In this document: piece after piece, positions 12,315-12,446 of the stretch
How the letters are laid out: the number at the start of each line of letters is the position of its first letter
How positions within the stretch are numbered: position 1 is the stretch's first letter
Virus genome (UHGV): UHGV-0177146
DNA from: a virus
Length of the DNA stretch: 14,562 nucleotides
Strand: one strand, 5' to 3'
Made by a program: the position numbers and the translations under genes
Notes under the pieces: generated by a model
The model's database searches: none
What the model was told of the DNA's origin: nothing
The model's input: the letters and a program-made list of their open reading frames with translations, nothing else

Positions 12315-12446
12315 CAGAAGACCGTTTACAGCAAAACTTAAACAATCTATTTCTCCGGTAAAGAAAAGGCGAAGGTTCGATTCCTTCACTCGGCAGATGT
12401 CGAGTTGGTGTAATGGTAGCACTCAAGATGATAAACAACGGTCTGG
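12315..12446 (+). ncRNA. structured RNA element D with internal circularly permuted tRNA-like module; candidate Y-RNA/YrlA-like RNA
   Basis: Closing helix AGACCGTT (12319-12326) / AACGGTCT (12437-12444). Inside, in this order: canonical T-arm GAAGG-TTCGATT-CCTTC (12371-12387), acceptor-like 7-bp hairpin ACTCGGC-agat-GTCGAGT (12388-12405), D-arm-like GTG-TAATGGTAG-CAC (12408-12422). Confidence 0.5.

Follow-up and report, generated by a model that had tools for sequence, protein, structure and literature searches.

Y RNAs and the protein Ro60 have been studied in autoimmunity and in RNA quality control, and surveys of them in bacteria and phages have been confined to cases in which a TROVE domain is annotated. 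The YrlA type (RF02553), found in Salmonella, M. smegmatis and mycobacteriophages, is defined by its proximity to a TROVE protein, whose gene lies within about 4 kb and on the same strand, the motif GNCGAAN0-1G near its 5' end and a tRNA-like domain with the order V, T, AS, D, i.e. variable arm, T-arm, acceptor stem and D-arm (PMC4201824); it is bound by Ro60/Rsr in vivo and contains pseudouridine-55 and dihydrouridine. As Chen et al. (2014) searched only genomes with an annotated TROVE protein (PMC4201824), Felix O1-like phages lay outside their survey. Here, we analyse virus genome UHGV-0177146, a stretch of 14,562 nucleotides (hereafter the window) that, judged from its sequence, comes from a Felix O1-like myovirus: positions 9800-13100 share 97% identity with Felixounavirus genomes, LF82P5 and UAB_Phi87 among them, and matches were obtained to 270 phage records. 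An earlier note, made from the letters of this sequence, had pointed to a YrlA-like RNA, which we call element D, lying between tRNA genes about 1 kb downstream of a gene for a protein with Ro60-like architecture.

Y RNAs with tRNA-like domains, phage ones included, have been known since 2014, and the likeness of this phage protein to Ro60 was noted in 2024. Its ortholog in Escherichia phage JohannRWettstein (Bas63), gp130, has a Ro60-like structure and counters the Ppl defence system; gp130 alone, either expressed from a plasmid or inserted in T7, rescues T7 from Ppl (PhageMaP preprint, PMC11482910). The PhageMaP authors guessed that some annotated Bas63 tRNA genes might be Y RNAs and identified none (PMC11482910). 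The window protein is 98% identical to gp130 (bas63_0130) and lies in the same gene order, but the candidates described here are unannotated elements between tRNA genes, and not the annotated tRNA genes proposed by those authors.

We find that element D is one of four paralogous elements, A to D, within a conserved, covarying and strand-specific RNA family that is tied to the gene of the Ro60-fold protein. In our judgement, positions 12312-12449 probably encode a stable Y-type non-coding RNA, a tRNA mimic among these four paralogs, which would be candidate partners of the phage Ro60-like protein.

Results

A permuted tRNA-like module with the domain order of YrlA

Mycobacteriophage ET08, which is named in Chen et al. 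2014 (PMC4201824), served us as positive control. In this phage, RF02553 matches just upstream of the Ro gene (37.4 bits, E 1.9e-5), and the Ro protein, gp220, matches both Pfam TROVE (4.7e-49) and vWA_Ro60 (2e-54). The ET08 YrlA starts with a closing stem, directly followed by the motif GCCGAGAG, a T-arm, a closed stem, UA and a D-arm. The YrlA-type architecture that the earlier note had named is borne out by this comparison, as the order in element D (closing stem, V, T, closed acceptor, D) is that given by Chen et al. 2014 and that of the ET08 RNA. As with YrlA, element D is small, lies near a Ro60-fold gene and on its strand, has paired 5' and 3' ends that form the closing stem and carries a motif right after the 5' strand of that stem. 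It differs from YrlA in the motif itself, UnCAGCAA, in the build of the stem (4 bp, an AGA/G loop, then 7-8 bp) and in the protein partner, which is of the DUF2828/DUF7788 type here and of the TROVE/vWA_Ro60 type in ET08. The two systems share their design and the protein fold.

The closing helix, T-arm, acceptor-like stem and D-arm described in the earlier note all lie where it had placed them, and the minimum-energy structure from RNAfold contains every one of them plus a V-like hairpin (Table 1). The element had been placed at 12315-12446; with the 4-bp outer helix that flanks the closing helix, it spans slightly more, 12312-12449. By inspection, tRNA-invariant nucleotides are present in the T-loop (UUCGAUU), in the D-loop (UAAUGGUAG, with G18G19) and as U8, and the same pattern (T-loop UUCRAnY, D-loop GG, U8) is seen in 14 related modules. 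The T-arm is the sole one of the window outside called tRNAs. ARAGORN calls no tRNA at element D, in which the anticodon arm is absent, and the tRNA model RF00005 gives a partial match at 12338-12388 that, at 22 bits, stays below its gathering score of 29 (E 0.14). The heptamer GGCGAAG at 12368-12374, which abuts the T-arm, was considered as a canonical Ro60 motif and set aside as coincidental because Felix O1 reads GGAGAGG at this place, so that the sequence is not conserved.

Four paralogous elements within the tRNA array

The three other elements had been missed by the earlier note. The octamer AGAAGACC occurs in four copies on the + strand between 11645 and 12323 (six in the whole window, 0.56 expected), and GGTCTGG has four copies, solely at the corresponding 3' positions of A-D. 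All four elements share a 4-bp outer helix, different in sequence in each, an asymmetric internal loop with AGA on the 5' and G on the 3' side, a 7-8-bp helix AGACCnn/nnGGUCU and, directly after it, the motif U-n-CAGCAA. The tRNA-like interior is present only in D, while A, B and C contain one small hairpin each (5 bp in A, 7 bp in C).

The elements are interspersed in a + strand array of 19 tRNA genes (ARAGORN) located 3' of the gene for the Ro60-like protein. Element D is flanked by tRNA-Asp (12061-12137) and tRNA-Lys (12596-12671), and the spacers that separate the elements from neighbouring tRNAs measure about 4-9 nt. Two promoter-like sites, both predicted, lie 3' of the Ro60-like gene and 5' of the array of tRNAs and Y-like RNAs (Table 1).

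The short elements A-C resemble YrlB of Salmonella and Yrl1/Yrl2 of Thermus phage phiLo (PMC12135203) in being stem-closed, in having no tRNA-like domain, in sharing the presumed protein-binding module with a tRNA-like sibling and in belonging to a set of several Y RNAs per genome. They differ in their motif, which is CGAA in phiLo, and in being interleaved with tRNA genes, and whereas protein binding has been shown for the phiLo and Salmonella Y RNAs, A-D are known here from sequence.

Table 1. Coordinates of the elements, their parts and the associated features; positions refer to the window unless a contig (L number) is named
Feature	Position	Strand	Sequence, structure or basis
Divergent Ro60-like protein gene, 471 aa	9894-11309	+	Helical N-terminal domain and vWA domain with intact MIDAS; ortholog of Bas63 gp130
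Sigma-70-like promoter match 1	11328-11356	+	Consensus scan, 10/12 positions; predicted
Sigma-70-like promoter match 2	11419-11448	+	Consensus scan, 10/12 positions; predicted
Element A, short Y-like RNA	11641-11719	+	Between tRNA-Glu and tRNA-Met; R1 29.3 bits, E 5e-5
Element A, outer helix and loop			TGAC/GTCA; loop AGA/G
Element A, helix	11648-11654 / 11708-11714		AGACCAA / TTGGTCT
Element A, motif	11658-11663		CAGCAA
Element B, short Y-like RNA	11808-11873	+	Between tRNA-Met and tRNA-Asn; R1 31.0 bits, E 2e-5
Element B, outer helix			TTGC/GCAA
Element B, helix	11815-11821 / 11862-11868		AGACCGT / ACGGTCT
Element B, motif	11825-11830		CAGCAA
Element C, short Y-like RNA	12222-12304	+	Between tRNA-Asp and tRNA-Lys; R1 24.1 bits, E 9e-4
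Element C, outer helix			GAGC/GCTC
Element C, helix	12229-12235 / 12293-12299		AGACCAA / TTGGTCT
Element C, motif	12239-12244		CAGCAA
Element D, candidate YrlA-like Y RNA	12312-12449	+	Sequence, RNAfold; R1 26.8 bits, E 2e-4
Element D, outer helix	12312-12315 / 12446-12449	+	TTAC / GTAA
Element D, internal loop	12316-12318 / 12445	+	AGA / G
Element D, inner (closing) helix	12319-12326 / 12437-12444	+	AGACCGTT / AACGGTCT
Element D, motif	12327-12334	+	UACAGCAA
Element D, permuted tRNA-like module	12350-12423	+	Sequence and fold
Element D, V-like hairpin	12350-12366	+	RNAfold; position of a variable arm
Element D, T-arm	12371-12387	+	GAAGG-TTCGATT-CCTTC
Element D, closed acceptor-like stem	12388-12405	+	7 bp, ACTCGGC-agat-GTCGAGT; loop AGAU
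Element D, U8	12406	+	Single U joining acceptor-like stem and D-arm
Element D, D-arm	12407-12423	+	GGTG/GTG-TAATGGTAG-CAC(T); GG in loop
Module with N-CCA acceptor loop	L056 5526-5638		
Module with N-CCA acceptor loop	L077 5792-5921		
Module with N-CCA acceptor loop	L077 8481-8610		
Module with N-CCA acceptor loop	L085 1397-1520		

Compensatory changes among the Ounavirinae

All four elements are kept at equivalent positions in Felixounavirus, Suspvirus and Mooglevirus, and element C is conserved across the Ounavirinae. The outer helix of element B shows a compensatory swap, from TTAC/GTAA in Felix O1 and others to TTGC/GCAA in the window and phiSUSP1. In line with the compensatory changes that the earlier note proposed to look for in related phages, the acceptor-like stem of element D has been replaced between genera by different sequences that always pair: ACUCGGC/GUCGAGU in Felixounavirus, ACACGU/GCGUGU in Suspvirus and Mooglevirus, and ACCCUUC/GAAGGGU in Citrobacter phage HP1. 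Element D was found in 253 phage records, and in all 40 records listed it has no RNA annotation; under it lies nothing, a 'hypothetical protein' or a neighbouring tRNA.

The protein encoded upstream

The stop codon of the gene 9894-11309 lies 1,003 nt upstream of element D, on the same strand. In Pfam the protein matches DUF7788 (4.6e-43) and DUF2828 (1.8e-28), its PHROG family, 850, is named 'RNA-binding protein', and NCBIfam returned nothing for it. A comparison of its AlphaFold (AF2) model (pLDDT 86.9, pTM 0.87) with the PDB by Foldseek gave Ro60 structures as all of the best 13 matches (Thermus phage phiLo, Xenopus, Deinococcus Rsr, human), with E values from 8.5e-9 to 5.4e-6, 511-557 aligned columns over both domains and a TMq of 0.48-0.66; matches to the von Willebrand factor A (vWA) domain alone reached a TMq of at most 0.26. 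Residues D279, S281, S283, T349 and D381 of the MIDAS (metal-ion-dependent adhesion site) motif are invariant in 37 homologs.

DUF2828 genes of other phages have neighbourhoods that are anti-defence or accessory. On contig L175 (7555-8058, 11265-12431) the gene stands directly before the anti-CBASS gene Acb1 and near the anti-Gabija gene Gad2, and on contig L173 (55-2955, 3634-11190) it lies in an array of 26 tRNA genes beside NAPRTase and a gene similar to phosphoribosyl pyrophosphate (PRPP) synthetase.

A strand-specific RNA family linked to the protein gene

We collected 80 viral loci with homologs of the Ro60-like protein at 38-98% identity. T-arms outside called tRNAs were all on the strand of the gene, and many of them occurred in one design, in which a helix strand, one nucleotide and YnC(A/C)GCAA are followed by the T-arm, a hairpin, UA, the D-arm and the complementary strand. 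When we scanned simply for helices of 7 bp or more that begin with AG, end with CT and lie beside the motif, 94 cases were found on the gene strand, as compared to 10 on the other strand and 9 in shuffled sequence.

A covariation alignment and a covariance model, R1, were then based on 27 short elements from non-Ounavirinae contigs only. Six of the seven pairs of the helix show double changes, its covariation score is 0.916 versus 0.195 in shuffles (reached by 0 of 500), and pairing falls below 50% when the partner is shifted by one column. Applied to the window without any filter, R1 recovered exactly B, A, D and C, in this order of score, the next match having 11.4 bits; it also recovers A-C in Bas63. 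Elsewhere, 75 viral loci yielded 58 matches, and 80 loci of bacterial or metagenome-assembled genomes another 32, all 90 on the strand of the gene, none opposite, and most within a few hundred nt of its ends. Since 42 loci with R1 matches contain no tRNA gene, it is the protein gene, and not tRNA arrays, to which the family is linked.

Elements of this family occur in 2-6 copies with different cargo, and A-D have its distinguishing features, namely the covarying 7-8-bp helix AG...CU followed by U-n-C-(A/C)-G-C-A-A, on the strand of the adjacent DUF2828 gene. While Ounavirinae clearly have the outer 4-bp helix with its AGA/G loop, it could not be made out in distant relatives, whose flanks mostly read AAAG...CUGAUA, and therefore we do not claim it for the whole family.

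Rfam 15 returned only tRNAs, both in the window (at gathering score and at E ≤ 10) and in 16 related loci (at gathering score); weak matches to Dicty_Class_I_RNA, tmRNA_permuted and others were far below thresholds and taken as chance. The family is not annotated as RNA in the genome records inspected, nor was it found in the searchable literature, whose coverage did not extend to the phage lists in the supplement of Chen 2014 and to the 2020 Annual Review. Searches for DUF2828, PF11443 and DUF7788 gave nothing relevant, Felix O1 together with Ro60 gave nothing, and Ro60 with anti-phage terms added only the PhageMaP preprint.

The scaffold of stem and CAGCAA motif carries other interiors as well. 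In L041 (3734-3833) and L056 (3757-3854) it encloses a near-complete tRNA in normal order (D-arm, anticodon arm, T-arm) that scores 52.9 and 41.3 bits, respectively, with the Rfam tRNA model, which suggests how the scaffold captures tRNA cargo. At least three further conserved cargo classes have no Rfam match: one of about 100 nt that contains CCTTTCTGGAGGGGAAAGCAAAAACTCGCCAAAA (L009 3276-3370, L010 3133-3232, L013 149-280, L015 1265-1373, L025 3734-3828), one of 205-253 nt, AGAGTG...GTCCCTTACACCACTCT (L009 2840-3064, L015 628-833, L025 3409-3659, L030 3066-3318), and one of about 250 nt that contains GGCTTGCGGAACTGAACCGATATACTGGGGAATAGGCAAGCAGAAAATAAAATAC (L047 3651-3898, L053 3652-3900, L064 1890-2142, L074 3714-3877, L075 3434-3674).

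The tRNA-like module in relatives

Because MAFFT alignments of the full-length tRNA-like elements lost their register around the acceptor and D parts, stems were parsed explicitly instead of being modelled in a second covariance model. Of 20 related modules, 14 have a hairpin of 6-8 bp whose first base directly adjoins the T-arm, as compared to 3.6% at random positions; these stems are all different in sequence. After the hairpin come UA, UG, UU or GU and a D-arm that has GG in the loop. Across 14 well-formed modules, T and acceptor stems are 100% paired, with 15 and 25 pair types, and pairing drops to 70% (T) and 49% (acceptor) with shuffled partners. Among the acceptor loops there are four GNRA tetraloops and four in which one base plus CCA comes right after the 7-bp strand (binomial P ~5e-5; Table 1).

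In permuted tRNA genes of the red alga Cyanidioschyzon merolae and in two-piece tmRNA, the tRNA-like 3' half is encoded before the 5' half. Element D has the same order, and the joining loop of the four relatives just mentioned opens with a discriminator and CCA, but element D has no anticodon arm and its closing helix carries a module of the protein-binding type. As N-CCA at the start of the loop resembles a tRNA 3' end, we take it as a hint that the loop may be opened by RNase P and tRNA 3'-end processing. In M. smegmatis, RNase P cleaves YrlA, whose stem is 7 bp long as well, and CCA is added to it (Chen et al. 2014, PMC4201824).

Other structured RNAs and genes of the window

Directly 3' of element D lies a second structured RNA (12449-12592, +), with a closing stem of 18-24 bp, attatctttgtagataag / cttatctacaaagataat, around ~105 nt. 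Its minimum free energy of -48.3 kcal/mol (z = -5.85) was reached by none of 200 shuffles, and it is kept in Felixounavirus, Suspvirus and Mooglevirus, with compensatory stem changes (gtag/ctac versus gcag/ctgc) and the conserved internal blocks gattctagatt and ctacaRacc; Rfam has no match to it. Two more structures are found without the CAGCAA motif: three hairpins between tRNA-Asp and element C (12138-12222, +; z = -3.9) and a stem AGAGGTC/GACCTCT around ~75 nt (14146-14233, +; z = -3.2).

A gene similar to tRNA-Trp(CCA) at 13296-13383 (+) is called by neither ARAGORN nor Rfam. Its acceptor stem, ATGGGACG/CGTCCCAT, is 8 bp long and precedes GCCA, its anticodon loop includes CUCCAAA, its T-arm is GGGGTTCAACTCCTC, and its D-arm is aberrant or missing. 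A similar tRNA-Trp-like design is present at L008 ~7990-8065, in a phage whose Ro60-like protein is just 48% identical. Within 12830-13076 (+), the strongest sigma-70-like promoter match of the region, TTGACA-17-TATAGT at 12845-12873, is followed by ~200 nt without gene call, in which Rfam gives a weak match to tmRNA_permuted (29.6 bits, gathering score 47). Among the protein genes, one for a DUF5681 protein (9441-9812, +) shortly precedes the Ro60-like gene and shares its strand, and one for a protein with three Ig-like domains (6682-7815, -) adjoins the endolysin gene (6218-6682).

Discussion

Several observations weigh against a Y-type RNA with a Ro60-like partner. The fold energy of element D is not significant (z = -1.1; 29 of 200 shuffles fold equally well), and since thermodynamics alone do not single it out, the case for it rests on comparison. 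In that comparison, the 7-bp helix of the 27-element alignment has 98.4% of its cells paired, a percentage that is partly circular because the seed elements were chosen by a paired helix; no such circularity affects the covariation and pair diversity, the bias in strand or the blind recovery of A-D from the window. R1 matches occur in just 43 of the 75 viral and 25-26 of the 80 bacterial loci, in a scan by a model that is biased toward short forms and over flanks that were limited in extent. The canonical Ro60-binding motif GNCGAAN0-1G is absent, its position being taken by U(A/U)CAGCAA in A-D and family-wide. The YrlA model, to which the earlier note had looked for recognition of the RNA, does not match element D: there is no RF02553 match in 11300-13100 at E ≤ 10, nor in the whole window at gathering score. 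Conversely, R1 has no match in ET08 at E ≤ 1.

The protein presents the same difficulty. It has no Pfam match to TROVE (PF05731) or vWA_Ro60 (PF25045), neither a single-sequence search nor a 37-sequence profile search of the PDB retrieved a Ro60 chain, and hhalign against the ET08 Ro family aligns just the MIDAS stretch, with a probability of 63%. The earlier note was thus right about the gene, its distance and, according to the AlphaFold and Foldseek comparison, its Ro60 fold, but the TROVE/Ro60 homology that it expected of profile searches was not found, and the relationship is shown solely by fold comparison. Because the best Foldseek matches of the model are Ro60 while sequence and profile searches find none, we call the protein a Ro60 homolog that is recognisable by its predicted fold and not by its sequence. 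As both RNA and protein are mutually undetectable by sequence or profile between the two systems, we regard element D as an RNA that works like YrlA but stands outside the YrlA family. Finally, the rescue of T7 by gp130 alone means that phage RNAs are not needed for the anti-Ppl activity, at least on overexpression.

That last result also bears on the question whether the RNAs have anything to do with the protein. They might be real and structured yet independent of Ro60, as free tRNA-mimic decoys against host defences that target tRNAs or as spacers for the folding and processing of the tRNA polycistron, gene proximity reflecting only a shared accessory or anti-defence island. Besides the activity of gp130 on its own, such independence would fit with the position of the elements inside a tRNA array, with two promoter-like sites between them and the gene, and with the N-CCA of 4 of the 14 acceptor loops, which is expected of tRNA-like processing. 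However, stem and motif are found beside the DUF2828 gene in the 42 loci without any tRNA gene, the modules usually lie within a few hundred nt of that gene and always on its strand, and the short A-C keep the conserved module although they have no tRNA-like part, so we regard independence as unlikely. The same closeness to the gene might instead mean that the stem/CAGCAA modules are cis-regulatory elements in the untranslated regions of the Ro60-like mRNA, for example autoregulatory sites, and not separate small RNAs; in most other loci the matches are indeed immediately up- or downstream of the gene on the same strand. Yet in bacteria, too, Y RNAs are transcribed together with rsr before being processed (PMC4201824), the modules come in 2-6 copies with different cargo, and in the window and all Ounavirinae the elements begin at least 330 nt past the stop codon, beyond a terminator-like hairpin and the two promoter-like sites, and are boxed by tRNA genes. 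We give a purely cis-regulatory role a small chance.

Two further explanations concern element D itself. Tandem tRNAs can, as Chen et al. caution for dimeric tRNAs, look like the YrlA pattern (PMC4201824), and in a tRNA array, with relatives that have N-CCA in the loop, one could think of a functionless, decayed remnant of such a tandem, in which one tRNA has left its T-arm and 3' acceptor strand and the next its 5' acceptor strand and D-arm. This appears very improbable, given that there is no anticodon arm on either side, that the module is enclosed by the family-specific stem and motif, and that it is kept in 253 phage genomes, with compensatory changes maintaining the stems across genera and in unrelated phages. 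A minus-strand open reading frame (12286-12543, 85 aa) is present in the window and appears as 'hypothetical protein' in several GenBank records; it is annotated in UAB_Phi87, and shorter ones are annotated over the region in Bas63. But its longest version measures 85, 50, 76, 81, 44, 49 or 34 aa in nine Ounavirinae genomes, frame and end points shift between genomes and substitutions follow the RNA pairing; we rejected it as a coding gene and see hardly any prospect that the region codes for this protein. All four explanations are weaker than that of a Y-type RNA partnering the Ro60-like protein.

If A-D are Y-type RNAs, they would be co-transcribed with the tRNA array from the promoter-like sites at 11328-11448 and set free by the same enzymes that process the tRNAs on either side. 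The shared stem/CAGCAA module would then be the binding site of the Ro60-like protein, the role that the GNCGAA/GGUCCGA stem has in canonical Y RNAs, and the variable interiors would be effector modules. Metazoan Y RNAs and Yrn1 of D. radiodurans (RYPER), which have no sequence similarity to A-D, are modular in the same way, with a conserved stem and loop or bulge as the Ro60 site and a variable loop that tethers an effector; the tRNA-like part of Yrn1 is in the other orientation (PMC4201824). In element D, the tRNA-like elbow might recruit or decoy RNase P, the CCA-adding enzyme, modification enzymes or host tRNA-directed nucleases, and the ribonucleoprotein (RNP) might modulate the counter-defence activity of the protein, by analogy with complexes of Ro60, Y RNA and PNPase. 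An anti-defence role is plausible: gp130 has a Ppl phenotype and homologs of the protein lie beside Acb1 and Gad2. As gp130 counters Ppl without the RNAs, they may regulate, gate or retarget the protein rather than be required for its activity.

A bolder extension, which we put forward tentatively and regard as rather doubtful, is that DUF2828-type Ro60 proteins and stem/CAGCAA RNAs form a widespread, hitherto unrecognised RNP platform of phages and mobile elements, in which a single protein-binding scaffold would hold interchangeable RNA cargo: a permuted tRNA, an entire tRNA or one of several further conserved structured modules. In it, the permuted tRNA would be opened by RNase P to expose CCA, and the RNPs would tether or decoy host RNA enzymes or tRNA-directed immune nucleases, amounting to an RNA-guided counter-defence.

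We believe that these results are relevant to both the Ro60/Y RNA field and that of phage counter-defence. They provide concrete RNA candidates for a phage Ro60-like protein with an existing genetic phenotype, the anti-Ppl activity in Bas63 that is transferable to T7, and the Bas63 system makes them directly testable in a tractable E. coli phage. For the annotation of phage genomes, they imply that in these tRNA regions several RNA genes have been mis-called as 'hypothetical proteins'. Furthermore, they point to a second, sequence-unrelated branch of Ro60/Y-RNA systems, absent from Rfam and without RNA annotation in the genome records inspected, with hundreds of members, a different recognition motif and modular cargo.

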